Positions 17,801 to 37,870 of a DNA stretch of 64,000 nt are shown one piece after another; the stretch's first letter is position 1, and each line of letters begins with the position of its first letter. The translations under genes and the position numbers were made by a program. The stretch is taken from NCBI GenBank assembly GCA_036490175.1, contig DASXEJ010000088.1, positions 1-64,000 on the forward strand, written 5' to 3'. Source of the DNA: Pirellulales bacterium (GTDB taxonomy: Bacteria; Planctomycetota; Planctomycetia; Pirellulales; JACPPG01). The notes beneath the pieces are model-generated. The model saw nothing but the letters and a program-made list of their open reading frames with translations, ran no database searches and was not told where the DNA came from.

Positions 17801-17920
17801 AGTTATGCCAACGATCGCGATTAAGAGGGTTAATAGGAATACAAGCACGGCCGGTCGGCGCGCGGGTTTCAAATACGAAACGATCGCACGATTAAGGCCG
17901 GATTGAATCTCGATGTGCAT
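14855..17920 (-). CDS. Sensor histidine kinase with a large periplasmic beta-propeller (two-component regulator propeller, Y_Y_Y-like) sensor, a HisKA_3 dimerisation domain and an HATPase_c domain
   Basis: Repeated W/LG...GL motifs typical of regulator propellers are followed by a TM segment (WFLPLVGMTLGLAGLGVY), an H-box (ARELHDTLIQGFSG) and an ATPase domain. The gene pairs with the NarL-type regulator immediately downstream. Start is uncertain between 17920 and 18028. Confidence 0.8.
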   Translation of the reverse strand: MHIEIQSGLNRAIVSYLKPARRPAVLVFLLTLLIAIVGITESANALDAARALTQAFHRVWQVPQGLPDPKIFVVSQTSDGYLWLGSPAGLIRFDGLRFTTVRECAGVKPEDLWVHDLCEDQSHSLWIATDRQGLIRYRCPTPRRFTLADGLPSETVQCVIADKKGAVWAGTSAGIVRLTDDRVAAFGRDQGLPLVDIHALAETQDGNIWVGGEGNRLGIFDGKAWTTRELASMPAGARVRAIAEAEDGTVWVGTSAGLIRVKDGRDNRLSSARSPADDSILCLTAGRDGSLWVGTKDGFSRLRDGEFESLTAADGLSQSTVYSICEDREGSLWVGTKHGLNQFSDRRTLPFTVREGLPSNEVGPICQDADANIWVGTLGAGLARFDGRRFVNLTKSDGLVSDTIYALAADNDRQLWIGTDCGLNSMREGRIEKKFTVEDGLPANLVTSLCQGSRGCLWIGTSAGIAKLHEGRIVLPPGNAGDLAAPVRAVLERRDGTLIAATRDGLYSYADQQYRPFPSGALANRDVDTLYEDVDGRLWIGTEADGLLLLDGEKVITFTTRTGLYDDDISGLVVDDEDRLWMASSSGISYVPRADLLKFAGGNLAKLKSTPFRMTDAMRTFEAREGIQASMCKTRDGRLWMSTTLGLLVIDPARLVRVLPPAPVVVEGVVVNGQIRNPREIGTLPPGSSNVAFEYTALSLLTPMRITFRYKLEGFDNDWIDAGARREAFYTNLAPGNYRFRVMARKSDNADWDQGEPVAFTIEPHFYQTSWFLPLVGMTLGLAGLGVYRLRVRRIKEQMRAVVAERSRIARELHDTLIQGFSGVTMEMQALAARLSPSNERGTLDEIIRDAASCLRDARRSVAGLRSGPGDRSGLAGAIAQAARQLTETREVRLRLELSDSPRQLPVEVEYNLLRIAQEAVTNAVKHSGARTIDVSLACTQQQILLTIADDGVGFAIAEGPWARPGHYGLIGMKERATQIGAEFRMAGEPGAGTAVSVRLPLSDSAHGVPVTSRHPATREA

Positions 17921-18247
17921 GTCCTGATAGCCCTCCGGCAGAGTCCGAAAAAGCGCGACGGCTAGCGAAAACCGGGACTGCACACCCCGTCGCAGCACGG
18001 TAATTATCCGACGCTCCACCCACCTCATCTTCCACTATATCCGTGTTCCCAGGGGGGCGGAAACTGGCGTTGTCATGAATCCTCTTGCACGCTATGCCAA
18101 ATGGCATAGCGTTAATCTGGCCACGTTACGATTGCCGTGAGGCTGAATAACGTACATGATGGTGGAGGGTGCTGACGGTCACGCTACGTCTTGAGTGGGG
18201 CGCCCGCAATCCTTCATCACGCCTGACCAGCCGGCAGGGGCGTCGAG

Positions 18248-19543
18248 GTGGCCAGTATGATCTCGAAAGTCCTCGTCAAGTCGCCCGAGCATAGACAGCA
18301 GCCGACAACGGCGCTGCCTCCGCTTGGGCATCCGCCCAAGGCTCGCCGCCGCATGGGCAGATGGCTTGCCTTGGCCGTCTTGGTTGGCGCTGCTGCGGCC
18401 GCCTATTTCACCGTACCTTGGGAGACCGTCGCAGGGTTGCTACCGTTAGGCGGCGCCAAGCCTGTCGCCACACGCGAAGTGCGGGCCATTCCGGTCGTAG
18501 CCGTAGCCGCCCGGCAGGGCGATATGAGCTTGTATCTCAACGGCCTCGGGTCCGTGACAGCGCTCTACACGGTCACGCTCCGCAGCCGGGTTGATGGCGA
18601 GCTTCTGAAGGTCGCATTTTCGGAGGGTCAGGTTGTCGAGAAGGGAGACCTACTAGCTCAGATCGATCCACGTCCCTACCTGGTTCAACGCCTGCAAGCG
18701 CAAGGGCAATTGCTCAAGGATGAAGCGGCCCGGCAAATCGCCCAACTCAATCTGGATCGCTTTTTGGCCCTGCTCCCCAACAGGACAGTAACCCAGCAAC
18801 AAGTGGACGAGCAAATAGCACTCGTCAAACAGGCCGAGGGTGCTATCGAGGCTGACCAGGCGTTGATCAAGAACATTGATCTGCAACTCGAATACTGCAA
18901 GATCGTGGCACCGATCCCCGGCACCATCGGGCTGCGTCTAGTCGACCCCGGGAACATGGTTAAGGCCAACGATCCGACCGGCATGGCCGTGATCAATCAA
19001 TTGCAGCCCATCACAGTTGTCTTCACCATCCCGCAAGATGATATTTCCCGGCTGCAAAAACAAATCAACTCGGGACGCGAACTCGGCGTTGATGCGTTCG
19101 ACCGCGATTTCAAAAATAAGCTTGCCAGCGGCACGCTCAAGGCACTGGATAATCAGGTCGACGTCACGACCGGAACGGTCAAATTGAAGGCGATCTTCCA
19201 GAACGAAGATCACATGCTGTTTCCCAATCAATTCGTGAACGCCCGGTTGTTGGTCGATACGATGCACGACGCGGTAATCGTCCCTGCGGCGGCAGTACAG
19301 CAGGGGCCCACCGGCACGCTGGTTTACGTGGTGGGGCCGGATTCTACGGTGGAAGTGCGACCCGTGACCGTCGGACCCACCGAGGCAGACGAGACCACCA
19401 TTGCCAGCGGGTTGTCGCCGGGTGATGTGGTCGTGGTGGACGGCGTCGACAAGCTTCAGCAGGGAACCAAAGTCGCACTGCGAGAGCGTGTGTCGCCCGC
19501 CGGCGGCGTGCCCACTGCCGGACGCCCCGCGCAAGGTTCCTAA
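18248..19543 (+). CDS. RND efflux membrane fusion protein (MdtA-like adaptor)
   Basis: TM/signal segment, a lipoyl-like region and coiled-coil hairpin ([26 protein letters not shown]), then a beta-barrel. Its stop overlaps the start of the next RND gene (TAATG). An alternative start is MGRWLALAV at 18353. Confidence 0.85.
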
Positions 19544-22500
19544 TGAATCCCTCTCGGCCATTCATTCTGCGGCCCGTCGCCACGGTGCTGTTGATGGCCG
19601 CCATTCTGCTGACGGGCATCGTCGCCTATTACCAGTTGCCGGTTTCGGCGCTGCCGCAGGTCGATTACCCGACGATTCAAGTCATGACGTTTTACCCCGG
19701 TGGAAGCCCCGAGGTCATGGCGTCGTCCGTTACGGCCCCCTTGGAGCGGCAATTTGGCCAGGTACCCGGTCTGAACCAGATGACGTCAAGCAGCTCGGAA
19801 GGCTGCTCGGTGATCACGCTGCAATTCATTCTCGATCTGAATATCGACGTGGCCGAGCAGCAGGTGCAAGCCGCGATCAATGCCGCGGCGACGTTCCTGC
19901 CGCGCGATCTGCCGGTCCCTCCCATCTACAGCAAGACAAATCCGGCGGACGCACCGATTCTGACACTGGCCCTCACCTCGTCCACGCTCCCCCTGTCCAA
20001 GGTGCAGGATTTCGCCGATACCCGGCTGGCCCAGAAGATCTCGCAGCTCTCCGGCGTCGGGCTGGTAAGCATCAGCGGAGGGCAAAAGCCCGCCGTGCGC
20101 ATCCAGGCCAACCCGACGGCATTGTCCGCACTTGGCATGAGTTTGGAAGATGTCCGCATGGCGGTTTCGCTGGCCAACGTAAACCAGGCCAAGGGCAGCT
20201 TCGATGGCAGCCGCCAATCGTTCACCATCAGCGCCAATGATCAACTGCTCACGAGCGACCAATACCGCAAGCTGATTATCGCCTACCGCAACGGCGCTCC
20301 GGTGATCCTGTCGGATGTAGCCAGCGTCATCGACGGCGTTGAGAACGCCCGGCAAGCTGCGTGGATGAACGAGATTCCGGCCGTGATTCTCAACATTCAG
20401 CGGCAACCCGGGGCAAACATCATTGACGTGGTCGAACGCGTCAAAAAACTGTTGGTCCAGCTCCGCGCCTCGCTGCCCGCGGCGATTTCGATTTCAGTGC
20501 TGACCGACCGTACCACTACGATTCGGGCCTCGGTCGAAGACGTGCAGTTCGAGTTGGTCCTGACCATTGGGCTGGTGGTGCTGGTCATCTTTTTGTTCCT
20601 GCGCAGTCTGACGGCCACCGTGATTCCGAGCGTGGCTGTCCCGCTGTCCTTGGTCGGAACGTTTGCGGTGATGTACCTGCTGGGGTACAGCCTGAACAAC
20701 CTTACGTTGATGGCGTTGACGATCTCGACCGGCTTTGTCGTCGACGACGCCATCGTCATGATCGAGAACATCGCGCGCTACATCGAACAAGGCGAAGCGC
20801 CGATGGCGGCGGCGTTAAAGGGTTCGTCCGAAATCGGTTTCACCATCGTATCGCTCACGATCTCGCTCATCGCGGTACTGATACCCCTGCTGTTCATGGG
20901 CGATATCGTCGGCCGGCTCTTTCGCGAGTTCGCAGTTACGCTGAGCGTCACCATTCTGGTGTCAGCGCTGGTGTCACTGACGCTCACCCCCATGATGGCC
21001 GCGCGCATCCTGCAGCATCAGCCCGAGTCGCAGCAGGGGATGATGTACCGCCTGTCCGAGAGCTTTTTCAACGAGGTGATCCGCTGGTACGGCGGCACAC
21101 TGAGATGGGTGCTCCGGCATCAGGTCATGACGCTTGTGGTCGCGATCGCCACGCTGCTGGCCACCGTGTACCTGTACATTGTCGTGCCCAAAGGCTTTTT
21201 CCCCGTTCAGGACGGCGGCGTGATCTTGGGCATCTCGGAAGCCCCGCACACGGTTAGCTTTGCAGCCATGTCCGAGCTGCAACAGAAGTTGACCCACGTC
21301 ATCGTAAAAGACCCGGCCGTCGAAAGCTTGTCGTCGTTCATCGGCATCGACGGCACGAACTCGACGCTCAACAGCGGCCGGATTTTGATTAACCTCAAGC
21401 CGCTCGAAGATCGTCACATATCGGCCTCTACCGTCATCCGCCGCCTGCAGGGCGAACTCGAACATGTTGACGGCATCACGCTCTTCATGCAGCCGGTGCA
21501 GGACCTGACCGTAGAAACCAGGGTCAGCCGCACGCAGTTCCAGTACAGCCTGGAAGATCCAGATGCAAAAGAACTGAGCCTGTGGGTTCCCCAGCTGGTA
21601 AGCCGTTTGAAGACATGCCCTCAACTGGTCGATGTGACGAGTGATCAGCAGGACATGGGACGACAGATTCGCGTCGTCATCGATCGGGACTCGGCGTCAC
21701 GGTTGGGCATCACGCCGCAAATGATCGATGACGTGCTGTACGACGCGTTCGGTCAACGGCAGATATCGATGATGTTCACGCAACTGAACCAATACCGGGT
21801 CGTGCTGGAGGTTAAGCCCGAGTTCCGCGATAATCCACAAGACATCAGCAACATTTACATTCATTCTCCGCTGGCGGGAAAAGTACCACTTGGCACGTTC
21901 ACGCGCATCGAAGAGTTGAATGCGCCGCTGGCCGTTAACCATCAGGGCCAGTTTCCGGTGACCACGATCTCGTTCAACCTGGCGCCGGGGTCGTCTTTGG
22001 GTGACGCAGTGCAAGCGGTGGAACAGGCTAAAGAAGAACTCGACCTGCCGCTGAGTATCAATGCTACGTTCCAAGGCACGGCGAAGGCATTTCAGGCGTC
22101 GTTGCGCAATGAGCCGTTATTAATTCTGGCGGCGCTCGTTACGGTATATATCGTACTCGGCGTACTCTACGAGAGTTACATTCATCCGATCACGATTCTC
22201 TCGACGCTGCCGTCAGCTGGCGTCGGCGCATTATTGGCGCTCATGCTCTTCGGCATGGACTTGGATGTGATCGCGCTGATCGGCATCATCCTGCTGATCG
22301 GCATTGTGAAGAAGAATGCGATCATGATGATCGACTTTGCACTCGAGGCCGAGCGGCACGAGGGCAAGCCGCCGGGAGAGGCCATCTACGAAGCCTGCCT
22401 GTTGCGCTTCCGGCCCATTATGATGACCACCATGGCCGCGCTATTGGGTGCACTGCCGCTGGCGCTGGGAAACGGCGTCGGTTCCGAGCTACGACGCCCC

Positions 22501-22659
22501 TTGGGCATTACGATTATTGGCGGCCTATTGGTAAGCCAGGTACTGACGTTGTACACAACCCCGGTCATCTATTTGGCCTTCGACGGTATTGCCAAACGCC
22601 TCCGCAAGCGGTCGTCCTCGGAACCTGCGGCCACGCCCGTGGGGGAGGATTGGACATGA
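19543..22659 (+). CDS. RND efflux permease, MdtB-like (heteromeric RND pair, subunit 1), 1038 aa
   Basis: Starts [47 protein letters not shown], an MdtB/MdtC-type N-terminus with 12-TM architecture. Confidence 0.9.
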
Positions 22660-25600
22660 GTCTCTCGACTCCGTTCATCTATCGCCCGATCGGCACGACC
22701 TTGATCACCGTGGCGATCACGCTGGTCGGAGCCCTGGGATATTTTCTGCTGCCTGTTTCGCCACTGCCGCAGGTCGAATTCCCCACGATCCAAGTGAATG
22801 CATCGCTTCCCGGTGCCAGCCCCGAGACGATGGGTTCGGCGGTTGCTACTCCGCTTGAGCGGCAATTCGGTCGTATCGCCGGTGTAACCGAGATGACGTC
22901 GATGAGCTTCTTGGGCTCGACTTCGATCACGATGCAATTCGATCTGAATCGGAACATCGACGCGGCAGCTCGCGATGTCCAGGCCGCCATCAATGCCGCC
23001 AGAAGTCAGTTACCTGCCAATCTGCCCAGCAACCCTACTTATCGCAAGGTGAACCCGGCCGATGCGCCGGTGATGATATTGGCGTTGACGTCAGATACCT
23101 ACGAGAAGGCCCGTATATATGACGCAGCCTCGACGATCCTGCAGCAAAAGTTGTCGCAGGTGCGCGGGGTCGGGCAAGTGATCGTCGGCGGTGGCGCACC
23201 ACCGGCGGTCCGCGTCGACGTGAATCCTACCTCATTGAACCATTTGGGATTGGTCCTGGAAGATGTGCGTACCGTACTGGGCACGGCCAACGCCAATCGC
23301 CCCAAGGGTCACATCGCGGATGACGATCGAGCCTGGTCGATCACGACCACGGATCAGCTTCTGAAAGCCGACGAATACCGCCCCCTGATCGTGGCCTATC
23401 GCAACGGCGCACCCATTCGACTCCAGGATATCGCCACCGTTACGGACGGGGTCGAAGACATCTTTGCGAAGGGGCTCTCTGACGGCAAGCCGGCGGTGCA
23501 GATCATCATCTTTCGCCAGCCGAACGCCAATATTATTCAGACTGTCGACCGTGTGCGTGCACTGCTGCCGCGACTGCAGGCCGAAATTCCCGCCGGCATC
23601 GAATTGGCCGTGGCGCTCGATCGCACGACGACGATTCGCGCCTCGGTCGAGGATGTGCAGTTTACGCTCGTGATTTCGATCGGCCTGGTGATCCTGGTTG
23701 TGTTTTTGTTCCTGCGCGATTTGCGCGCGACCTTCATTCCCAGCATCGTCGTCCCCGTGTCGCTGATCGGCACATTCGGCGTCATGTATTTGATGGACTA
23801 CAGCCTCGATAATCTGTCGCTCATGGCACTTACCGTCGCGACGGGCTTCGTCGTGGATGACGCCATCGTGGTGATCGAGAACATTAATCGACATCTCGAA
23901 GAAGGGATGAAACCACTCGCTGCCGCCCTGCACGGCGCACAGGAAATCGGCTTTACCGTACTCTCGATCAGCGTCTCGCTTGTTGCGGTATTCATACCGA
24001 TCTTGCTCATGGGAGGAATCGTCGGGCGCTTGTTCCGTGAGTTCGCCGTGACACTGTCTGTCGCCATCGCAGTCTCGATGTTGATCTCGCTGACGACGAC
24101 GCCAATGATGTGTGCCACGTTGCTAAAAAGCCATGGCAAAGATAGTCATGGCTGGTTCTATCGGGTGAGCGAATGGTTTTTTGATGTCGTTTTGCGGGCC
24201 TACGAAATCACGCTCGGATTCGTCTTGCGCCATCAGCGGATTACAATGCTGGTCACGCTGCTGACGCTGGCTTTTACCGTTTACCTGTACGTCATCATCC
24301 CCAAGGGTTTTTTTCCTCAGCAAGACACCGGGCGTCTGAGTGGTTCGATCGTGGCCGATCAAAACACGTCGTATCAGGCGATGGAGCACCTGTTGACGCG
24401 ATTCGCCAGCACCGTCAGCGAGGATCCGGCCGTCGAGGGCGTTATCGCCTTCACCGGCGGTCAAGGCGGAACGGCCAACGCCGGACGCATGTTCGTCAGT
24501 CTGAAGGCGCTGGAAGAGCGAAAGATGTCCGCGGACGAGGTGATCGGAAGATTGCGTGGAAAGCTGGCCCGTATTCCAGGGGGCACCCTGTTTCTACAAG
24601 CCGTGCAGGACCTTCGCATCGGCGGTCGATCCAGCAGTTCGCAGTACCAGTTCACCCTGCAGGGTGACAACCTGGACGACCTGGTCGAATGCGGTCCTGT
24701 CGTGCTGCGCGAGATTCGCAAGCTATCGACCGTGGTTGACGTCAGCACCGATCAACAGAATCGCGGATTGCAAGCATCGCTCGACATCGATCGACTGATG
24801 GCGGCGCGGCTGGGCATTACGCAGCAATCGATCGACGACACGCTGTACGATGCATTTGGGCAGCGAATGGTGTCGACGATGTACATGCCACTCAACCAAT
24901 ATCACGTCGTGATGGAGGTCGACCCCGGTTTTCGTCAGGATCCTACAGGCCTGAAGCACATCTATGTCGCCGGCGCCATGCAAGCGGAAGTTCCGCTTAG
25001 CGAGTTTTCCAAGTCCTCGACCAAGACCACAGCCTTGGCCGTCACGCATTCCGGCTTTTTCCCCTCGGTCACGATCTCGTTCAACTTGGCGCCGGGAGCT
25101 TCACTAGGTGAAGCGGTCGAACAAATCCAGGACGTGCAGCGCGAGCTGGCGCTGCCCGCCACGATCCGCAGCAGCTTTTCCGGTGCCGCCCAGGCGTTTC
25201 AGGCCTCGTTGCGAAACGAGCCGATTCTGATTCTCGCGGCCTTGGTCACGGTGTACATCGTCTTGGGAATACTCTACGAGAGCTTCATTCACCCGATAAC
25301 GATTCTGTCGACGCTCCCTTCGGCCGGCGTAGGCGCGCTACTCGCGCTGATGCTCTGCCGGACGGAATTGAACGTGATGGGCTTGATTGGCATCATTTTG
25401 CTGATCGGCATCGTCAAGAAAAACGCGATCATGATGATCGATTTCGCGCTCGAAGCGGAGCGCAAGGATGGCACGCCTCCGGACGAGGCCATATTCCAGG
25501 CTTGCATCCTGCGATTTCGCCCGATCATCATGACGACCATGGCCGCTCTATTGGGCGGTCTCCCCTTGGCCCTGGGAACGGGCAATGGAGCCGAGTTACG

Positions 25601-25766
25601 GCGGCCGCTGGGCATCGCCATCGTCGGAGGCTTGATCTTCAGCCAGGTTTTGACGCTCTACACGACACCGGTTGTGTATCTGTACCTCGACCAATTCCGC
25701 CTATGGTGTGCACAATGGCGGCGACGCGCGCCGCATGCCGCAGTCGAGGAACTCGTCGAAGTGTAG
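22650..25766 (+). CDS. RND efflux permease, MdtC-like (subunit 2), 1038 aa
   Basis: Starts [47 protein letters not shown], and is paralogous to the preceding gene. Its start overlaps the upstream stop. Confidence 0.9.
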
Positions 25767-26361: not shown

Positions 26362-27639
26362 ATGCGCGTCACGCTTGAATATGGCAAGACTGGGCTGGCC
26401 GTTGAATTGCCGGCGGACCGTGTCGTTCGCTCCTTAGGGTACAAGAACGCTCCGCCGCTCGCCGATCCGGCAGGCGAATTGGCCGCCAAGCTTGCTGCGC
26501 CGACCGGGACGCCCCCTTTGCCAGAGCTCGCACGCGGTCGCACAAGCGCCTGTGTCGTAATCAGTGACATCACGCGCCCCGTGCCGAACCGCCTGATCCT
26601 ATCGCAAGTTCTGCCGATTTTGGAAGCCGCCGGTATACCGCGCGAAAAGATCACCATCCTAGTCGCCACCGGGCTGCACCGCCCGAACGAAGGCGCCGAA
26701 CTGGTCGAAATGGTTGGCCAAGATATTGTGGATCGCTATCGGATTGAGAATCATCACGGTACGGTACTGGCCGAGCACACGTACTTGGGAGATAGCCCTC
26801 GCGGTGTACCGATCTGGATCGACTCGCGCTACGTCGAGGCGGATCTAAAGATCACTACCGGCTTGATCGAACCACATCTGATGGCGGGCTTCTCTGGCGG
26901 TCGTAAGCTGATCTGCCCAGGCATCGCGGCACTGGAAACCGTCAAGGTCTGGCACGGGCCGACTTTCCTCGAGCACCCCAAGGCCGATTGTGGCATTCTT
27001 GATGGCAACCCTGTTCACGAAGAGAACACCTGGATCGGCCGCCACACGGGCTGCGATTTTATCGTCAATTCCGTGATCGATACGGAGCGCCGCCCACTGG
27101 CGCTCGTCGCAGGCGACATGGAACAAGCCTTCCTCGAAGGAGTGGCATTCGTCCGCAAAGTCGTCGTCGACACTGTGCCGGAACCGGTCGACGTGGTCGT
27201 CACAAGTTCGGCCGGCTACCCGCTCGACACTACTTTTTACCAGGCAGTGAAGGGACTGACGGGAGCCCTGCCGATCGTCAAGCAAGGAGGCACGATCGTG
27301 CTGGCGGCGAGCCTTTCCGAAGGAATTGGCAGTCCCGAATTTCAGCGGCTGTTTGACGAAAACCCCAGCCTGGACGTTTTCGTCGAACGGATCTTGGGGA
27401 AGGACTATTTCGTGATGGATCAGTGGCAGCTCGAAGAACTGGCCAAGGTCTGCCGCAAAGCACGTGTCAAGATCGTCAGCCATGGCCTGCCGGCCGCGAC
27501 GATCAATCGCCTCTTTGTCGAAAGTGCGCCAAGCGTCGAGGCTGCCGTCGCGGAATCGCTGGCCGAGTACGGTCCGAACGCGACCTTGGCCGTGATCCCC
27601 AAGGGGCCCTACGTGTTGGCGCAAGTTGCGACGGATTAA
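26362..27639 (+). CDS. LarA-family protein (nickel-pincer-nucleotide-dependent lactate racemase-like; DUF2088 N-terminal domain)
   Basis: VISDITRP motif and the GGRK motif ([14 protein letters not shown]), which in LarA carries the NPN-tethering lysine. Conserved His residues (GLHRP, ENHHGT) are present. Confidence 0.75.
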
Positions 27640-30339: not shown

Positions 30340-30619
30340 GGGGGACGCAGCGCGCTAGCCGAGAAACCTATGCGTCAAACGACAATTGCGCGACCTCCGT
30401 CACGACTTGAGTCCCGTTTTGCCAGAGAGTAAAAGGAACTTGCGTATCCGCCGGTCGGCATCTTGGCTACTCTAACACCGGACGCGCACCTGTAAAAGAC
30501 GGAACGACTGGCCAGGCCTTACAGGGACAGACAACCTTAAGGGGACACCGGTTTCGTAACGCGTGCGGCACACCGCAGATCGCAGTCGTCCTACTGACTG
30601 CAAAACAGTTCGCTACCTC

Positions 30620-31105
30620 ATGTCAAAGCAAAAACCGACCACCGATCGCGAGCACGACAACGAGCGGGTTGTCAGCCAGAACCGCTCGGCTCGCCACGAG
30701 TATGAGGTGATCGATACGCTGGAATGCGGCATCATGCTGGTCGGAAGCGAGGTGAAGAGCCTGCGCACGGGCCATATTTCGCTGGATGAAGCATACGCGC
30801 GCGTGAAAAACGAGGAAGTCTGGCTCGTCGGCTGCGACATCCCCGAATATGTGCAGGCCAATCAATTTAATCATGAACCTCGTCGTCCGCGCAAGCTGCT
30901 ACTGCACCGTCGCGAGATCAAAAAATTCGCCGGCAAGGCCTACGAAACCGGACTAACCCTGGTCCCCTTGAAGATGTATTTCAAAAAGGGAAAGGCCAAG
31001 CTACTACTGGGGATCTGCCGTGGCCGCAAGCTGCACGACAAACGCGAAAAGCTCAAAAAACAGTCCGTGCAACGCGACATTCAGCGCGCATTGCGCGGTC
31101 GCTAA
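30620..31105 (+). CDS. smpB: SsrA-binding protein
   Basis: The translation (VVSQNRSARHEYEVIDTLECGIMLVGSEVKSLRTG ... LLLHRREIKKF ... LVPLKMYFKKGKAKLLLGICRGRKLHDKRE) matches SmpB throughout. Confidence 0.9.
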   Translation: MSKQKPTTDREHDNERVVSQNRSARHEYEVIDTLECGIMLVGSEVKSLRTGHISLDEAYARVKNEEVWLVGCDIPEYVQANQFNHEPRRPRKLLLHRREIKKFAGKAYETGLTLVPLKMYFKKGKAKLLLGICRGRKLHDKREKLKKQSVQRDIQRALRGR

Positions 31106-31363
31106 GGGTAAGGCTGTGCTCCGGACGGTGATCTGAATCCCCGGTGCCACGATTTCACTCCTATTGCTCACGGGGCGAACTCGATTCGGGTCGGCCTCGT
31201 AAGTACAACCGTGTATCCGCGCGCACGATGCCGACACTGGCTGAGTTCGGGCCGGCAAACTCAGCTTGTCGGATCGAGGTAACATGTTATCTTCAAAGAC
31301 CTTGTTTCGATCTGACCGACGCGACGTACAGTCTCAGCACTAGGCGAAAAACGAGTTTCCGGC

Positions 31364-32035
31364 ATGCTGCAAGTCAAAGATCTCAAAAAGTCGTTCCCCC
31401 AGCCCGACGGCACGCGGCTGCCGATTTTGGACATTCCCGAGTTCAGTGTCGCCGCGGGTGAGCAAATGGCCCTGATGGGGCGTAGCGGCTGCGGCAAGAC
31501 GACATTGCTGCACATCATCGCCGGCATAAGCCGCCCCGACTCGGGACTGGTTCAATTGGGCGGCTGTGACATTCATCGCCTTTCGGAACATGGCCGGGAC
31601 CGTTTTCGGGCCGACAACATCGGCTACGTCTTCCAAACCTTCAACCTTTTGCCCGGCTTCTCGGCCTTGGAAAACGTCCTTTTGGGCATGAGCTTTACCG
31701 GTGGCCGAGTGGACGAACCCCGTGCCCGATTGCTGCTTTCCCACGTCGGTCTCGCACATCGGCTGACGCACAAGCCGGCCATGCTGTCGGTCGGGGAACA
31801 GCAGCGCGTGGCCGTGGCCCGGGCGATGGCCAATCGGCCGAAGCTGCTGCTGGCCGACGAGCCCACCGCAAACGTCGATACTCGCCATCAACAACAAGTG
31901 ATCGATCTAATACGCACTTCGTGTACCGAGGAAAACGTAGCACTGGTGCTGGTCACGCACACTCCCGAAGTGAGCGAGCAATTCGCGCGTGTGGACCATC
32001 TCGATCAACTCAACCAGGCCGTGGTGACAGCATGA
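31364..32035 (+). CDS. ABC transporter ATP-binding protein (MacB/LolD/FtsE-like, type VII ABC)
   Basis: Walker A (GRSGCGKTT), signature (LSVGEQQRVAVARA) and Walker B (LLLADEPT). The stop overlaps the start of the permease gene (ATGA). Confidence 0.9.
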   Translation: MLQVKDLKKSFPQPDGTRLPILDIPEFSVAAGEQMALMGRSGCGKTTLLHIIAGISRPDSGLVQLGGCDIHRLSEHGRDRFRADNIGYVFQTFNLLPGFSALENVLLGMSFTGGRVDEPRARLLLSHVGLAHRLTHKPAMLSVGEQQRVAVARAMANRPKLLLADEPTANVDTRHQQQVIDLIRTSCTEENVALVLVTHTPEVSEQFARVDHLDQLNQAVVTA

Positions 32036-33690
32036 GCTTGTGGAAGATTGCCTGGCGCAGCATCCAGCAACGAGCATTGGCTTCGACCCTGACGGCACTG
32101 AGCATGGCGCTTGGCGTGGCGCTTGTCGTCGCCGTGCTGGTGGCTCAGGGGGTGATCCGCGATTCATTTACGCGCGGCGCTGGTGGCTACCACCTGGTGG
32201 TCGGCAAGAAGGGGAGCCAGTTACAACTGGTCCTCAATACGGTCTATCACTTACAGGACCCGATCGAGAATGTGCCCTACTCGTTCTACAAAGAATTCGT
32301 CAACACCCCGGGCCATTCCGGACGTTTCGCACCCTATGTGCAAGTGGCGATTCCCTATTGCCTGGGTGACAACTATGAGGGCTTTCGTGTAGTCGGCACC
32401 GTGCCCGCCTTGTTCGACGAGTTCGAATATGCTGGAGGCAAGAAGTACGAATTCCAGTCCGGCGGCCGCAACTTCGAGCAAGAGCACTTCTTCGAGGCGG
32501 TGATCGGTTCAGCCGTGGCCCACAAGACTGGTCTTAAGGTAGGGGATGAGTTTCAGCCCACCCACGGTTTGTCCAACGAGGGGGATGGGCACAAGCACGA
32601 TGCGTTTAAGATCGTCGGCATCCTCAAGCCGACAGGTACGGCCAACGACCGCGCGCTGTTCATCAACATGGAGGGTTTCTTTTTGCTCGACAAGCATGCC
32701 AAGCCGGTCGACGAAGTCGCGGCCGCGCATGGCGACGAACACCATGACGCCGAAGACGCCCATCATCACGACGAGCACGCCGAACACGATCACGATGATG
32801 GAGCAATGCCTGCCGCTGACGTGGGCGAACAAGACGCCAACCATCCGGCCCACGACGACCACGAGCATTCAGACGCCGCGAAGCCGGACGCTGATCATCA
32901 TCATGACGAGCAGCCGGGCGAAGCCCATTCGCCCCACGATGCCGTGGGCGGAGGAGCAGAGCATTCCGAGCATGATCATGCCGCCCACGACCCTGCCGCC
33001 CCGGATCATGACGCGCATGCTGGCGATGATCACGATCATGATGCCCACTCCCACGTGCGACATGATCACGATGCTCATGACCACACAGGCCACGATCACG
33101 AGGGACACGATCATCACCACGAACCTCTGCCAGACGATCAGCGCGAAGTGACGGCCATTTTGGTGCTGGCATCCGACGACTTTAGCGCCGAAGGACTGCG
33201 TACTACAATCAACGAGGGCGAGGTTGCTCAGGCCGCCTCCCCCATTCGAGTTATCAACGACTTCTTTAAGACGATGGTCAGCGGAGTAACAATCGCCCTG
33301 TTGGCGCTAACCGTGCTGATTATCGTCGTGGCCGGAGTCGGCGTGATGGTGAGCATCTATAATTCTATGAACGATCGCCGTCGCGATATCGCCGTGATGC
33401 GGGCTCTAGGGGCGGGTCGCGGCACGGTTTTGTCAGTGATCTTGTTCGAATCGATCCTGCTGTCGCTCGGCGGTGGTTTGCTCGGCTTTGTGCTAGGTCA
33501 CACCTTGGTAGGTGTGCTCGGGCCCATCGTCGAGGCATTTTCAGGCGTCACACTCGGTTTTATGCAGTTCGTCTCGTATGAGTTAATCTTAATTCCAGGC
33601 CTGATCGTACTGGCGGCGCTGACTGGCTATTTGCCCGCGATGAGTGCCTATCGCACCGACGTGGGCAAAGCGCTGTCGGCCAGTCCGTAA
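32032..33690 (+). CDS. FtsX/MacB-like ABC permease with a His/Asp-rich insertion in its periplasmic domain
   Basis: N-terminal TM1 (ALASTLTALSMALGVALVVAVLV), a large extracytoplasmic domain, and the C-terminal FtsX-type three-TM bundle (DIAVMRALGAGRG...). An HxD/HD-rich stretch of ~130 aa (DEHHDAEDAHHHDEHAEHDHDD...HDHEGHDHHHE) sits inside the periplasmic domain. Confidence 0.8.
   Translation: MSLWKIAWRSIQQRALASTLTALSMALGVALVVAVLVAQGVIRDSFTRGAGGYHLVVGKKGSQLQLVLNTVYHLQDPIENVPYSFYKEFVNTPGHSGRFAPYVQVAIPYCLGDNYEGFRVVGTVPALFDEFEYAGGKKYEFQSGGRNFEQEHFFEAVIGSAVAHKTGLKVGDEFQPTHGLSNEGDGHKHDAFKIVGILKPTGTANDRALFINMEGFFLLDKHAKPVDEVAAAHGDEHHDAEDAHHHDEHAEHDHDDGAMPAADVGEQDANHPAHDDHEHSDAAKPDADHHHDEQPGEAHSPHDAVGGGAEHSEHDHAAHDPAAPDHDAHAGDDHDHDAHSHVRHDHDAHDHTGHDHEGHDHHHEPLPDDQREVTAILVLASDDFSAEGLRTTINEGEVAQAASPIRVINDFFKTMVSGVTIALLALTVLIIVVAGVGVMVSIYNSMNDRRRDIAVMRALGAGRGTVLSVILFESILLSLGGGLLGFVLGHTLVGVLGPIVEAFSGVTLGFMQFVSYELILIPGLIVLAALTGYLPAMSAYRTDVGKALSASP
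32725..33125 (+). other. His/Asp-rich low-complexity coding segment inside the ABC permease gene
   Basis: Runs of cac/cat/gac/gat codons, e.g. catgatcacgatgcccactcccacgtgcgacatgatcacgatgctcatgaccac. Confidence 0.8.
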
Positions 33691-33723
33691 AATAGCTGTG
33701 GGCAGCACCGGTCCGCAAAAAGA

Positions 33724-35352
33724 ATGTTTCTCCTCCAGGAGCCTGCCGTGAATACGTCATTCGTTCGCTCGTGGGCACTTGTTTTGATCGCCGCCATCGC
33801 AATTGCTCCCGCGCCGTTGCGAGCGTGTCCGTTTTGCAGTGCGGTGTCGATGACGCTCGGCGAAGAGTTGAAAACGTCCGACGCGGCCGTGATAGCCACG
33901 CTGGTCGATCGGCCAGCTTCGTCTGACCCCGCCGGCGGTGCGCCGGTGAAGAGCAAGTTCAAGATCACCAAAATCCTCAAGGGAGAAAAGCTGCTGGCCG
34001 GCAAGCCGGAGATCGAGATGCTCTATTTCGGCTCGCAAGATCCGGGAGCCACATTCCTGTTGTTCGGCGTCGATCCGAAGGAACTGGCCTGGGGCACGCC
34101 GACGGCTCTCTCTGAGCGCGGCCTGGCGTATATCGAAAGGGTTGCCCAGTTGCAGGACAATTCCACTGAGCGTTTGGCTTTCTTCCAGGAGTATTTTGAG
34201 GACGCGGATCCTCTCCTTTCGAGCGATGCCTTCAACGAGTTCGCCAAGGCGCCCTACTCCGATGTCACGCAGCTCAAAGAGCAAATGCACCGCGACAAGT
34301 TGATCGAGTGGATCAAGGACGACAAGGTGCCGGCCAGCCGGCGTCGACTCTATCTGACGATGCTCGGCACCTGCGGCCAGCCCGACGACGTACCGCTGAT
34401 TGAAGGCATGATCAAGACCGACGACCGCCAGGTGCGCAGCGCGCTCGACGCGATGATCGGATGTTATCTCAGTCTGCGTGGTGCCGACGGCCTGCCGCTG
34501 ATCGAGGACCTGTTTCTGAAAAACGACAAATCCGAATACGTCGACACGTATTCGGCCATTGTGGCCCTGCGTGTGTTGGGTCAAGAGACGACCCTGATCC
34601 CCAAGGATCGGTTGGTCGCCGCCTTGCGGAATATGCTCGATCGACCACAACTGGCCGACCTTGTGATACCGGATCTGGCACGATGGCAGGACTGGGGCGC
34701 AATGGACAAGTTGGTCGATCTGTTCAAAAACGCCAACGAGGAATCGTCCTGGGTCCGCGTGCCCGTCGTCCAGTTCCTGCGAGCTTGCCCTGACCCCAAG
34801 GCTCAGGAATACCTCGTCGAATTGGCCAAGATCGACCCAGATGCCGTGAAGCGGGCGACAAACTACTTGATGTTGCCAGGCGCGTCGGGCGCCCCCGCGC
34901 CGGTAGCCGCCGCGACGAGTGACTCGAAACCAGCCGCCGAGCCCGCAGCATCGGTTGCGACCCAATCGGCATCAGGCGGAGCTGAACAGCAGGCGCCTGC
35001 GGAAGGTGCTGTGACGGCGAACGATGGCGCGTCCGGCAAAAAACCTGCTACGTCAGAATCCTCCGGAATCAATGCCGAGGTTTCGGCGACCAAGCCCGAT
35101 TATGCGACGGGGCCTGCCGCCGAGGCCGTCGCTATTGGTGCGTCGGCGGACGCGAACGGATCCGCATCGAGTCCCAGGGATAAATCAAAGTCCGAAGATA
35201 TCACGCCAGCAGAGAGCGACAAACAATTCCCGGATCGGGCCGCCAGCCGCAGCGCAACGACACCGATCGGCGTGAAATCCGACTGGACCCTAGTGGCGGT
35301 GATCTTTGCCGCGATCGCGGCCGGATCGATTTTCTTGTTCCGCCGACATTAG
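33724..35352 (+). CDS. Secreted, membrane-anchored alpha-helical protein with C-P-F-C at the start of the mature chain (paralog A), an Ala/Pro/Ser-rich linker and a C-terminal TM anchor
   Basis: Signal peptide ending ...APAPLRA|CPFCSAV. Conserved blocks are shared with the paralog at 36734 (YFEDADPL / ARWQDWGAMDKLVDLF). Its start lies 34 bp after the permease stop. Confidence 0.6.
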   Translation: MFLLQEPAVNTSFVRSWALVLIAAIAIAPAPLRACPFCSAVSMTLGEELKTSDAAVIATLVDRPASSDPAGGAPVKSKFKITKILKGEKLLAGKPEIEMLYFGSQDPGATFLLFGVDPKELAWGTPTALSERGLAYIERVAQLQDNSTERLAFFQEYFEDADPLLSSDAFNEFAKAPYSDVTQLKEQMHRDKLIEWIKDDKVPASRRRLYLTMLGTCGQPDDVPLIEGMIKTDDRQVRSALDAMIGCYLSLRGADGLPLIEDLFLKNDKSEYVDTYSAIVALRVLGQETTLIPKDRLVAALRNMLDRPQLADLVIPDLARWQDWGAMDKLVDLFKNANEESSWVRVPVVQFLRACPDPKAQEYLVELAKIDPDAVKRATNYLMLPGASGAPAPVAAATSDSKPAAEPAASVATQSASGGAEQQAPAEGAVTANDGASGKKPATSESSGINAEVSATKPDYATGPAAEAVAIGASADANGSASSPRDKSKSEDITPAESDKQFPDRAASRSATTPIGVKSDWTLVAVIFAAIAAGSIFLFRRH

Positions 35353-35439
35353 AATGAAACGTGGGATAATTATGATGACAGGCGTGGGGCTTGGGAGCCT
35401 TGGTTTGTCGATCAACCGGGTTGCGACAAAGGTTGTGGT

Positions 35440-36114
35440 ATGAGCGTCGATGTAGCGTCCCGCGTGTCTGATGTCACGATGGAAGACTACGCGCACTATC
35501 GTGCGCTCAGCGTGCTGGCCGTCGTCAGCTGCCTGCTCAGTGTATTATCCGTCGCTGCCTTTCTCAGCTGGACGCTGCTGGTAATACCCGCGTTGGGACT
35601 CCTTACGGGCCTCGTCGCCGTGCGTCGCATTCATGTCAACGCAAGTGAACTTACTGGCAAGCGCATCGCGTGGGCGGGCGTGTTACTAAGTCTGTTGATG
35701 CTCTGCGGCGGCGGCGGCTACCTAAGCTATGAATACGCAGCCGAGTTACCACCGGGCTATGAACGATTGAACTACGCTCAGCTTCAGCCCGACGCCGAGG
35801 TTCCAGGTGAAATCTATCCTCCCGACATCACCGAATATGACGGGCACCGTATTTTCATTAAGGGCTATGTCTACCCCGGCAAGCAAACTTCCGGAATCAA
35901 GCAGTTCGTGCTGTGTCGTGATAACGGAGATTGCTGCTTTGGTGGTCAGCCCCGGTTAACGGATCGAATCTTGGTAAATCTTGATGGGCCGCTGACACTC
36001 GAATATACGACACGGCAACGGCATGTGGCCGGTACGTTCCGCGTTGAACCGGGCCAAGCCGTGGATGGGCTCAGCGGCGTGATCTATCACCTCGACGCGG
36101 ATTATCTGAAGTGA
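35440..36114 (+). CDS. Membrane protein: two N-terminal TM helices plus a C-terminal DUF3299-like domain with a C-C motif
   Basis: Hydrophobic hairpin (LSVLAVVSCLLSVLSVAAFLSW...GLLTGLVAV), then IKGYVYPGKQTSGIKQFVLCRDNGDCCFGG...GTFRVEP...GVIYHLDADYLK, which is paralogous to the next gene. Confidence 0.6.
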   Translation: MSVDVASRVSDVTMEDYAHYRALSVLAVVSCLLSVLSVAAFLSWTLLVIPALGLLTGLVAVRRIHVNASELTGKRIAWAGVLLSLLMLCGGGGYLSYEYAAELPPGYERLNYAQLQPDAEVPGEIYPPDITEYDGHRIFIKGYVYPGKQTSGIKQFVLCRDNGDCCFGGQPRLTDRILVNLDGPLTLEYTTRQRHVAGTFRVEPGQAVDGLSGVIYHLDADYLK

Positions 36115-36734
36115 GAATGCCCGGCACGCAAATCTGGTGTGCAGCAATGCTTTTGTCAGCGTTGCTCTTGGCCGTGGGGTGCGAGGAGAATCGCAGCCCA
36201 GCGGCCGTCGAACGCTCTTCCAAACCGACGACCGATTCTGCACCACAATCGACCGCCGGGATGGAGACGGCCGAGGCTGCGTCTGCCGAGGGGGATACCG
36301 TACCGTCGAGTCCTGAGGTTCCGGAACCGAAGGCCGCCCCCGTAGAAACGACGTCCGCGGCACCGCAGAATATCACGTTCGATACGCTGAAATTCCCCTT
36401 GGAAAAGAATGACGATTATCAGCGGTCCTTGCTGACGCCCGCGATCGCATCGCTTGATCACCGTCCGGTCAAATTGCGTGGCTACATCCTGCCCAGCTTT
36501 CAGCAGTCGGGACTCACGCAATTCGTGCTGGTCCGTGACAACATGCAATGTTGTTTCGGTCCCGGCGCGGCCTTGTACGACTGCGTCGTGGTGAATATGA
36601 AACCTGGCAAGACCGCGGACTTCACGGTGAGGCCGGTGGCAGTCGAAGGGACATTTGAATTGCGTGATTACAAGGGCCCTGATGGCAAGTTCCTGGCCAT
36701 CTATCATCTCGACGGCGATGCCGTGCGGTTTTAA
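36111..36734 (+). CDS. Lipoprotein with a DUF3299-like C-C motif domain (paralog of the preceding gene)
   Basis: Lipobox LAVGC, then LRGYILPSFQQSGLTQFVLVRDNMQCCFGPG...EGTFELRDYKGPDGKFLAIYHLDGDAVRF. The GTG at 36111 overlaps the upstream TGA; an ATG at 36117 is the alternative start. Confidence 0.6.
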   Translation: MRMPGTQIWCAAMLLSALLLAVGCEENRSPAAVERSSKPTTDSAPQSTAGMETAEAASAEGDTVPSSPEVPEPKAAPVETTSAAPQNITFDTLKFPLEKNDDYQRSLLTPAIASLDHRPVKLRGYILPSFQQSGLTQFVLVRDNMQCCFGPGAALYDCVVVNMKPGKTADFTVRPVAVEGTFELRDYKGPDGKFLAIYHLDGDAVRF

Positions 36735-37870
36735 TGACATATTCAGTGCTCTCGCCGGCGCTGCTTCTCTTAGGTGTGCAGGTTGTAGTCGCCTGCCCCT
36801 TTTGCACGGCGGTTAAGCCCAGTCTTGGCCAGCAACGCGACGAGGCGACGGTCACATTATTGGCCGACGTCGCCCGCAGCGAGGCAGGAAAGTGGTATCT
36901 CACTATTCAGAAGATCTTCACCGGCGCAGACCGGCTGCCGAATCCGCGGCACCTGACCATTGATGTGGCCAATATTTCTGGCGGTAGTGGTGTCAAGGCG
37001 GGGCAGCTCGCCCTCGTCCTGGCGACGCCCGAGGGCCCCGAGTCGAAGTCGGCATGGCAGATCATACCGCTCGATGAGACCAGCTACGCATACGTGGCGC
37101 GGTCACCTTCGGAGCGTTTGCCCGCGGCCAAGCGATTGCCTTATTACGCAGAATATCTCGAACACGCGAATCCGCTGATCGCCGAGGATGCCTATCGCGA
37201 GTTTGGTAACGCATCGTACGACGAAGTAGCACTTGTCACGGATCGGCTTCCGTTTGCCGCATTGCGACGTGCGATCGAGGATCCGCACGTTCCCGAGGCG
37301 CGTCAGGGCTTTTACGGATTGGCGCTCGGTCTGGCAAAAAGCGCAGCGGACCGCCGCGCCAATGAAACCGTCTTGCAGCGCTTGATCGATGCTGACGCCG
37401 ACGACTTTCGGGCCGGATTCGATGGTGTGTTGGGGGGCTATCTCATGCTCACCGGCACGCCAGGGCTTATCCACGTCGAAAAGCAGTTGCTTGCCAATCC
37501 CCAAGCGCGGTCGGGCGACCTGAGACATGCGGCGACGGCGCTGCGCTTCGTCCACGAGTTTGACCGGGGCGTGATTCCGGACGCAGACCTGCGACGGGCC
37601 ATGCGGCGACTGCTGACGCGACCCGAGACCGCACCAGCGGCAATTATCGACCTAGCGCGTTGGCGAGATTGGGATTGCCTGAACGATGTTGTGGCACTGT
37701 TTAGCCGCGCGGAGTTTACTGATCCTGCGACAACGGCAGCCGTCGTTGGTTATTTGCTTGCTTGTCCACGACCGGCAGCTGTGGCGGCCCTGACGCGACT
37801 ACGTGAACAAGACCCCCAGCGCGTAGCTGACGCCGAAATTCAAGGAATTTTGCCCGCCGCCAGCCATTAG
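36734..37870 (+). CDS. Secreted protein, possibly a lipoprotein, with C-P-F-C at the start of the mature chain (paralog B of 33724..35352)
   Basis: MTYSVLSPALLLLGVQVVVA|CPFCTAV, where VVAC fits a lipobox. Blocks YLEHANPL and ARWRDWDCLNDVVALF are shared with paralog A. Its start overlaps the upstream stop (TAATG). Confidence 0.6.
   Translation: MTYSVLSPALLLLGVQVVVACPFCTAVKPSLGQQRDEATVTLLADVARSEAGKWYLTIQKIFTGADRLPNPRHLTIDVANISGGSGVKAGQLALVLATPEGPESKSAWQIIPLDETSYAYVARSPSERLPAAKRLPYYAEYLEHANPLIAEDAYREFGNASYDEVALVTDRLPFAALRRAIEDPHVPEARQGFYGLALGLAKSAADRRANETVLQRLIDADADDFRAGFDGVLGGYLMLTGTPGLIHVEKQLLANPQARSGDLRHAATALRFVHEFDRGVIPDADLRRAMRRLLTRPETAPAAIIDLARWRDWDCLNDVVALFSRAEFTDPATTAAVVGYLLACPRPAAVAALTRLREQDPQRVADAEIQGILPAASH

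Follow-up and report, generated by a model that had tools for sequence, protein, structure and literature searches.

Why does a permease with the fold of MacB-type exporters carry, within its extracytoplasmic domain, a long segment rich in histidine and acidic residues, and what could such a segment do? The question is raised by a six-gene operon (31364-37870, + strand) in a 64-kb stretch of DNA, hereafter the window, from a Pirellulales metagenome-assembled genome (MAG; contig DASXEJ010000088.1, positions 1 to 64,000). The second gene of this operon (32032..33690) encodes a 552-aa permease of an ATP-binding cassette (ABC) transporter. According to the original prediction, made from the window sequence, the periplasmic domain of this permease contains a His/Asp-rich insertion of about 130 residues that is unusual for such a protein and could capture metal or deliver it to partner proteins. 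Here we find that the loop belongs to a known, poorly understood system, termed PA4063-PA4066 in Pseudomonas aeruginosa and ZrgABCDE in Vibrio cholerae and V. parahaemolyticus, and that a His-rich loop on the permease and an adjacent zrgA gene are mutually exclusive. The PA4063-PA4066/ZrgABCDE system is Zur-regulated; major pathogens induce it when starved of zinc, and its function is a matter of dispute.

A histidine-rich loop in the periplasmic domain of the permease

The His/Asp-rich segment is present as described and spans 134 residues (residues 232-365; 32725..33126), among which there are 38 His, 29 Asp, 12 Glu and 23 Ala; the original count of more than 40 His is slightly too high for the segment; the protein as a whole has about 48. 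The segment lies within a hypervariable loop (residues 223-370; 32698..33141) that is bounded by the anchors H222-AKP and (H)HEPLPxxQ. Histidine makes up 28% of the segment and 26% of the whole loop, compared to 2.5% of the remaining protein. The densest 30-aa stretch of the loop contains 14 His as against at most 8 elsewhere in the window, the latter in spurious frames, and no other real open reading frame (ORF) of the window approaches this density. The other low-complexity periplasmic linkers encoded in the operon, namely residues 385-520 of the first HEAT-type protein (HEAT1) and residues 25-88 of the second DUF3299 protein (DUF3299b), contain no His at all.

At the DNA level, Tandem Repeats Finder detected only a 9-nt unit repeated 2.6 times in the segment, and both His and Asp are encoded by a mixture of their codons (CAT 19, CAC 19, GAT 15, GAC 14); a recent microsatellite, that is, an array produced by DNA slippage, can therefore be ruled out. 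Codon choice shifts in the loop, with CAT:CAC and GAT:GAC ratios of 19:19 and 15:14 compared to 2:8 and 7:11, respectively, in the remaining gene. The loop is a real, non-random feature of the protein.

In the AlphaFold2 model of the permease, which was built with 45 homologues (mean predicted local distance difference test score, pLDDT, 76.6; predicted template modelling score, pTM, 0.70), the core is confident and the domain flanking the loop mostly scores above 85, in contrast to nearly all residues between 237 and 355, for which the pLDDT is below 50. The loop is thus predicted to be disordered and to emanate from a fixed site in the MacB-type periplasmic domain, between the Sabre-like part and the last beta-alpha-beta (Porter-like) unit, which leads into the second transmembrane (TM) helix.

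The permease is a PA4065/ZrgB homologue

The permease consists of a large extracytoplasmic domain located between TM1 and TM2 (approximately residues 51-403) and a C-terminal FtsX domain with 4 TM helices. Pfam profiles recognized both FtsX (PF02687; residues 427-544, 58.2 bits, cutoff 25.5) and MacB_PCD (PF12704; residues 19-217, 36.4 bits, cutoff 27, profile positions 1-176 of 207), the latter domain being interrupted by the loop. These two domains, together with the adjacent gene for a cognate ATPase, place the protein in the MacB/FtsX-type (type VII) superfamily of ABC transporters. A Foldseek search with the model similarly yielded the MacB/LolE/HrtB fold, with LolE and MacB at E=4e-12 to 1e-11. 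A sequence search of the PDB retrieved MacB, LolE, LolF and YtrF; for most of these, MacB included, only the TM part aligns (phmmer E ~1e-9), and the NCBIfam equivalogs score far under their cutoffs, so a generic MacB, LolC or FtsX assignment was rejected. The permease is 100% identical to a Pirellulales MAG protein.

As a reference for PA4065, we used the 422-aa permease of a Pseudomonas locus recovered via PA4066, which is 96% identical to P. aeruginosa PA4065. BLASTP aligned the window permease with this orthologue end to end (31% identity, E=4e-29, for the periplasmic domain and 28% identity, E=2e-10, for the TM part), and the profile-profile comparison with the PA4065 family by hhalign gave a probability of 100 (E=6.9e-52, 415 columns). 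Given the full-length alignment and the profile-profile match, the permease is, by sequence, a member of the PA4065/ZrgB family; the exporter-type assignment of the original prediction stands with respect to the MacB/FtsX fold and does not extend to MacB proper. In the hhalign alignment, both flanks of the loop are matched and the His-rich segment is not, which marks the segment as a genuine insertion: it adds approximately 120 residues relative to PA4065, whose linker at this site is 28 aa long and has no His-rich stretch.

Loop composition is conserved among planctomycetes

At least 519 species-representative genomes encode a relative of the permease. We examined 80 loci from such genomes along with the 120 best database homologues, which come from Pirellulales and other Planctomycetota, including Singulisphaera; together, these yielded 194 unique loops. 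Orthologues are present in, among others, Singulisphaera acidiphila (P0092) and Tautonia sociabilis (L023). Every examined planctomycete orthologue has a loop at the same site, between H-AKP and (H)HEPLPExQ. The loops are 28 to 238 aa long (median 91.5) and contain 0 to 52 His (median 16, or 21%), with a median Asp+Glu content of 27%; at least 5 His are present in 157 of the 194 and none in 16. The last 15 residues before the PLP anchor include a median of 6 His.

The composition of the loop is conserved, whereas its sequence and length are hypervariable. Even between two orthologues with 97% identical cores, the loop shows a 20-aa indel, and yet the composition is kept across core identities from 37% to 100%. 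In a neighbor-joining tree of the cores, His-rich loops are found in nearly all clades, and loops that lack His and are still acidic appear in at least four separate clades.

Several loops contain internal repeats: four copies of a ~40-aa unit with the motif VNPPHGQPGHVHSDDED in orthologue P0014, (SDEAK)n repeats in P0090, three copies of a ~45-aa unit without His in L060 (the locus of P0077), and a (HDEHAAHEHEHES)n array in P0414. Hence, loops grow by duplication. The loci L013, L015, L019, L036, L044, L050, L052, L061 and L078 have loops of similar length that are acidic, rich in Ser and Thr and devoid of His. The lineages with His-free loops appear to be mostly marine (TMED10, an AH-324 single-cell genome, ALOHA, Rubripirellula and Rhodopirellula), and the loss of His from the loop may be linked to habitat; these lineages keep all four conserved Asp/His residues of the core, which are described below.

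The permease-borne loop and an adjacent zrgA gene are mutually exclusive

A HMMER search with PA4065 retrieved 1035 representatives at E<=1e-30, from which the best 146 full-length ones (50% clustering; 41-59% identical to PA4065) were taken as a sample of the PA4065 branch. At the same site, 46 of the 146 have a loop with at least 5 His and 29 have one with at least 10 His; the largest of these non-planctomycete loops contains 54 His in 173 aa. Because 46 of the 146 representatives carry it at the same position, the His-rich loop is, on the evidence of the alignments, a recurrent trait of the whole PA4065/ZrgB family that P. aeruginosa happens to lack. The expectation that such a loop would be unusual on this kind of permease therefore had to be abandoned: most planctomycete orthologues have one, as do about a third of the non-planctomycete representatives.

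We then compared the distribution of the loop with that of ZrgA, the protein encoded by the first gene of the Vibrio operon. A hidden Markov model (HMM) of ZrgA was built from 74 sequences and 91 non-planctomycete loci were scored, a locus being counted if it included at least 1.5 kb upstream of the permease. ZrgA adjoins the loop-less permease in 68 of 71 non-planctomycete loci and the His-loop permease in none of the 3 scored (Fisher p=3e-4); it was also not found at two further His-loop loci, L085 and L172. The His-loop side of this comparison is small because the metagenome scan gave mainly loop-less close relatives of PA4065. Among planctomycetes, the HMM detected no ZrgA homologue in any of the 71 scored loci, and none was found in the window or in the 80 related loci; no match to ZrgA/PA4063 was obtained for the six proteins of the window operon with either Pfam (PF10986) or phmmer. 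The true correlate of the loop histidines is thus the absence of ZrgA. A full-text literature search found no paper describing a His-rich loop borne by the permease, and neither this loop nor the fact that it and ZrgA exclude each other appears to have been described before.

The hallmark of ZrgA is itself a disordered His-rich loop of varied length, which in V. cholerae binds 4-5 Zn in vitro with low affinity (PMC9820375), and the His-rich loops of PA4063 take part in coordinating Zn (PMC8561739). The Pseudomonas ZrgA recovered with the PA4065 locus carries AHDDHDHDHAHG and EEHDHDDGDHDEHEGHHH. The proposed resemblance of the window segment to known metal-binding His-rich loops was borne out, the match being to the zinc-binding loop type of ZrgA: as in ZrgA and ZnuA, His alternates with Asp and Glu, disorder is predicted, the length varies and the location is periplasmic. 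However, the loops of ZrgA and ZnuA belong to soluble binding proteins that dock onto a permease, whereas the window loop is covalently part of the permease; furthermore, planctomycete loops reach 238 aa and 52 His, compared to ~60 aa for the V. cholerae ZrgA loop.

At the level of the operon, the window system shares with PA4063-PA4066/ZrgABCDE the arrangement of an ATPase with a 4-TM permease, the homologous periplasmic domain with one Asp and three His conserved, the adjacent DUF3299 gene and a disordered, variable-length element rich in His, Asp and Glu. The Pseudomonas and Vibrio operons begin with ZrgA/PA4063, whereas the window operon lacks ZrgA and has the His-rich element on the permease itself. 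Additional differences are the planctomycete host, the duplication of DUF3299, with CCFGPG in place of the CxHxPPPP of the Pseudomonas/Vibrio system, the two added alpha-solenoid proteins with an ACPFC motif, and an upstream region with an ECF (extracytoplasmic function)-type promoter-like motif in which no canonical Zur box was found. For ZrgD (DUF2607), none of the six operon proteins has a Pfam match at E<=0.01, in a scan that did not exhaustively cover small ORFs.

The likeness to MacB, LolCDE, HrtBA and FtsEX is one of overall fold and topology, and we know of no characterised system of these types with a His-rich loop. The window operon also differs from MacB in its partners: no HlyD/membrane fusion protein (MFP) or outer membrane factor (OMF) match, as expected of a MacA-type adaptor or a TolC-type channel, was found among the six operon proteins, and an HlyD gene lies with two AcrB genes in a separate resistance-nodulation-division (RND) operon (18248-25766). 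The loops of ZIP and CDF transporters are similarly His-rich, disordered and part of the transporter chain; these loops, however, are cytoplasmic and belong to unrelated folds, in contrast to the extracytoplasmic loop of this ABC permease. For the ZIP loop, a role in sensing or shuttling Zn has been proposed (PMC12236471).

Candidate metal ligands in the folded periplasmic domain

The folded part of the periplasmic domain contains four conserved residues that are candidate metal ligands: Asp113 (32368..32370), His178 in a PTHG motif (32563..32565), His189 in a KHD motif (32596..32598) and His222, the N-terminal anchor of the loop (32695..32697). Among the 80 planctomycete loci, position 113 is Asp in 70 and His in 7, and the three histidines are found in 76, 78 and 77, respectively. 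In the PA4065 branch, none of 40 diverse sequences departs from D105, H168, H178 or H211 (PA4065 numbering). The alignment equates D113 with D105, H178 with H168 and H189 with H178; H222 probably corresponds to H211, the two being 2 residues off at a gap in the alignment. All four residues are kept in both branches, including the lineages with His-free loops.

The operon and its partner proteins

The first gene of the operon (31364..32035) encodes the ABC ATPase (Pfam ABC_tran, 116 bits), and its stop codon overlaps the start of the permease gene (ATGA); the nearest NCBIfam models are of the LolD, YbbA and FtsE types, every one of them under its cutoff. Downstream of the permease lie genes for two proteins with an ACPFC motif and two of the DUF3299 type, and the order ATPase-permease-(HEAT)-DUF3299a-DUF3299b-(HEAT2) is common among planctomycete loci. 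At least one DUF3299-type gene follows the permease in most of the 80 loci, and an ACPFC/HEAT gene does so in most loci as well.

The second of the two DUF3299 genes (36111..36734) encodes a probable lipoprotein (PF11736, 25.4 bits, cutoff 22) that is the counterpart of PA4066/ZrgE. It matches PDB 4hsp at E=1.7e-4; this structure is that of PA4066 of P. aeruginosa (PMC8561739), and DUF3299 is the ZrgE component of the Vibrio operon (PMC9817125). The preceding gene (35440..36114) encodes a DUF3299-like paralogue that is anchored in the membrane by two N-terminal TM helices (40% identity to the next gene product over 97 aa, E=1e-21). The motif RDxGxCCFG is conserved in the first of these proteins and FVLVRDNxxCCFGPGAxLxDC is invariant in the second, CCFGPG being invariant in both. 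The planctomycete motif RDNxxCCFGPG...DC stands at the position where PA4066 of Pseudomonas has YYGACIHVPPPP; in the Pseudomonas proteins, CIHVPPPP takes the place of CCFGPG.

The first ACPFC protein (33724..35352; Pfam HEAT_2) is secreted or anchored and comprises, following a hydrophobic segment, the N-terminal ACPFC motif, a small beta domain, a HEAT/ARM-type alpha-solenoid, a long linker of Ala, Ser and Pro and a C-terminal TM helix. The second one (36734..37870), also an alpha-solenoid protein, is its paralogue, with 34% identity. The ACPFC motif is at least 90% conserved among 51 orthologues and invariant in 20 aligned sequences. AlphaFold2, run for the HEAT protein on a 2-sequence alignment, modelled the second ACPFC protein (pLDDT 74.7) with a beta domain (residues 41-110) and a solenoid (115-370), leaving the CPFC segment unmodelled, and a Foldseek search with this model retrieved ARM and importin-alpha-like solenoids. 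No characterised homologue of the ACPFC proteins was found. The motif could be a redox, metal-binding or lipidation site; a thioredoxin/glutaredoxin active site was considered and not adopted, with profile matches to thioredoxin-fold proteins in the PDB being non-significant (E 0.2-0.8) and the AlphaFold2 model not placing the motif in such a fold.

Does the loop serve these partners, as the original prediction proposed? The His content of the loop shows no correlation with the DUF3299 or HEAT/CPFC genes, and mismatches of both types occur: L010, L040 and L051 have His-rich loops followed by unrelated genes in place of the accessory ones, and L013, L015, L019 and L036 have His-free loops with the full accessory gene set. 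Delivery of metal to the DUF3299-like or CPFC proteins is therefore unsupported. Variability of the loop without correlation to the accessory genes, which according to the same prediction would point to a neutral expansion, is literally what was observed; nevertheless, that conclusion does not follow because the composition is conserved across deep divergence and in two phylum-level branches.

Upstream elements and genomic neighborhood

Analysis of 72 planctomycete upstream regions (from loci L001-L080) revealed two enriched elements. The ECF-sigma-type promoter-like motif GAAC-N17-CGTA occurs on the coding strand in 44 of the 72 regions and on the opposite strand in none, with 0.7 expected from shuffled sequences. 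In the window it is found at 31177..31201 (+ strand), 187 nt upstream of the ATPase start (73-271 nt across loci), and is one of 2 matches in the whole window. The putative sigma-70-like promoter element CTTGy-N18-TAYSAT (31265..31293, + strand) is present at fixed spacing in 22 of the 72 regions vs 1.15 expected. Its spacer in the window contains a perfect palindrome, TAACATGTTA, and the aligned consensus of the relatives shows a partial TAA..TTAT dyad. The half-sites of TAACATGTTA resemble those of the proteobacterial Zur box (GTTAT/ATAAC), in the opposite arrangement; given this resemblance, the palindrome may be a repressor operator. An RNA element in the long 5' leader was also considered, and Rfam gave no match to a riboswitch or other known RNA at E<=10.

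Outside planctomycetes, the locus L089 (801-5916), which has a loop-less permease, shows the gene order znuA-znuB-zrgA-ATPase-permease-DUF3299. Zur-box-like palindromes, GTTATGTTATAAC, GTTATGTAATAAC and TGTTATATATTAACA (GTTAT-N3-ATAAC, TGTTA-N5-TAACA), are located upstream of L089, L087 and L088; in L087 and L088, which are ZrgA-less His-loop operons, they precede the ATPase gene.

The smpB gene (30563-31105) lies directly upstream of the transporter operon, as it does in 23 related loci, including L004, L009, L011, L018, L022 and L025; this synteny is conserved and probably has no functional meaning. Clustering of the context ORFs yielded smpB, a CBM9-like gene and unrelated genes, and no conserved ECF sigma factor, anti-sigma factor or metal genes beside the operon. 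Farther upstream in the window (14855-25766 and 26362-27639), there is a gene for a large beta-propeller/Y_Y_Y hybrid histidine kinase on the - strand, followed by the RND efflux operon, which consists of an HlyD-type adaptor and two tandem AcrB-family pumps, and by a LarA-type gene of the nickel-pincer lactate racemase family. No link between these genes and the transporter operon was found.

Proposed metal capture and alternative roles of the loop

Metal capture is the best-supported reading of the loop. It is favored by the assignment of the permease to the PA4065/ZrgB family, the retained composition of loops with divergent sequences, the recurrence of the loop outside planctomycetes, its complementarity with ZrgA, the zinc-binding loops of ZrgA and PA4063, the znuAB genes and Zur-box-like sites of some relatives, and the conserved Asp and His residues of the core. 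The disordered, acidic, His-rich chain would bind divalent metal, most probably Zn2+, at low affinity, concentrate it near the periplasmic domain and pass the ions to Asp113, His178, His189 and His222 of the folded part, so taking over in cis at least some of the function that ZrgA/PA4063 provides in trans to Vibrio and Pseudomonas. The loop would thus be a cis-tethered, low-affinity, high-capacity antenna feeding the conserved Asp and His residues, a proposal for which we consider the chances to be about even. In this scheme, metal binding, the identity of the metal, its hand-off and the direction of transport are all inferred.

Several observations weigh against this proposal. The operons with the 16 completely His-free planctomycete loops also lack ZrgA, so that loop histidines must be dispensable in some, mostly marine, lineages, and V. 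cholerae can do without the His-rich loop of ZrgA (PMC9820375). The direction of transport is disputed between zinc import with ZrgA as the binding protein (PMC9820375) and the export of pyochelin-cobalt, which a 2024 study argues to be the function of PA4064/PA4065 instead of zinc import (PMC11481552). k-mer and palindrome counts revealed no canonical or conserved Zur/Fur palindrome in the 72 planctomycete upstream regions, where the best-conserved element is the ECF-type promoter motif. Finally, the complementarity with ZrgA rests on 3-5 non-planctomycete His-loop loci and on statistics that ignore phylogeny, and ZrgA was looked for within 4-8 kb on either side of the permease and could be encoded elsewhere in those genomes.

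The alternative that fares best is that the loop acts as a metal sensor or regulator, such that metal binding alters the conformation of the permease or its coupling to the ATPase, with the transporter inhibiting itself when metal is plentiful or being activated when metal is scarce. In favor of this reading, the loop is placed at the boundary between two subdomains whose movement is part of the mechanotransmission cycle established for the MacB family, conservation within the loop peaks in the His cluster directly beside the structured PLPxxQ anchor, and a sensor role has been proposed for the loop of ZnuA. Similar proposals have been made for PA4063, as a concentration sensor (PMC8561739), and for the His-rich loops of ZIP transporters (PMC12236471). 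However, the variation of loop length and of the number of histidines, from 0 to 52, fits capacity better than a tuned sensor, and the anticorrelation with ZrgA fits a sensor and an antenna alike; overall, we regard a sensor as unlikely.

Somewhat less likely again is a role in export, detoxification or buffering, in which the loop would bind the expelled metal or chelate, or else serve as a periplasmic metal sponge. The permease does have the fold of the MacB/LolE/HrtB exporters, Co is reported to accumulate in a PA4065 mutant (PMC11481552), the conserved upstream ECF-type promoter-like motif is of a kind typical of envelope-stress regulons, and some His-loop loci are near MerC or HupE/UreJ genes. 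Nevertheless, the operon encodes neither a membrane-fusion nor an outer-membrane partner, genetic work in V. cholerae supports a function in zinc-limited growth (PMC9820375, PMC9817125), and relatives show Zur-box-like sites and adjacency to znuAB.

The least probable explanation, that the loop is a neutral or structural low-complexity linker with a His richness that stems from mutational drift or is a side-effect of habitat, would account for the extreme variation in length and sequence, including indels between 97%-identical orthologues, the internal repeat expansions (P0014, P0090, L060), the His-free acidic loops in several clades and the lack of correlation with the DUF3299 and HEAT genes, but is countered by the retention of the unusual composition at one and the same site in two distant branches and down to 37% core identity, the position-specific His cluster beside the C-terminal anchor, the absence of His from other linkers of the operon, the mixed codons without a DNA tandem array, and the mutual exclusion with ZrgA.

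Implications

Many members of the family, among them essentially all planctomycete ones, have no ZrgA and bear a ZrgA-like His-rich element on the periplasmic domain of the permease. The fused element, along with the invariant Asp and three His, points to direct handling of metal by the permease domain. More tentatively, and with considerable doubt, PA4065/ZrgB-type transporters could be MacB-fold machines that handle free metal at a periplasmic Asp-His3 site fed by an interchangeable His-rich antenna, either ZrgA in trans or the loop in cis. If so, the planctomycete and other ZrgA-less versions would be complete metal transporters in themselves, able to work without a binding protein, and the family would employ a mechanism of metal uptake or periplasmic relay that is undescribed for any ABC fold, which would count against the metallophore-export model. 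For biochemistry and cryo-electron microscopy, the loop-bearing permeases offer naturally occurring versions of the system in one polypeptide.

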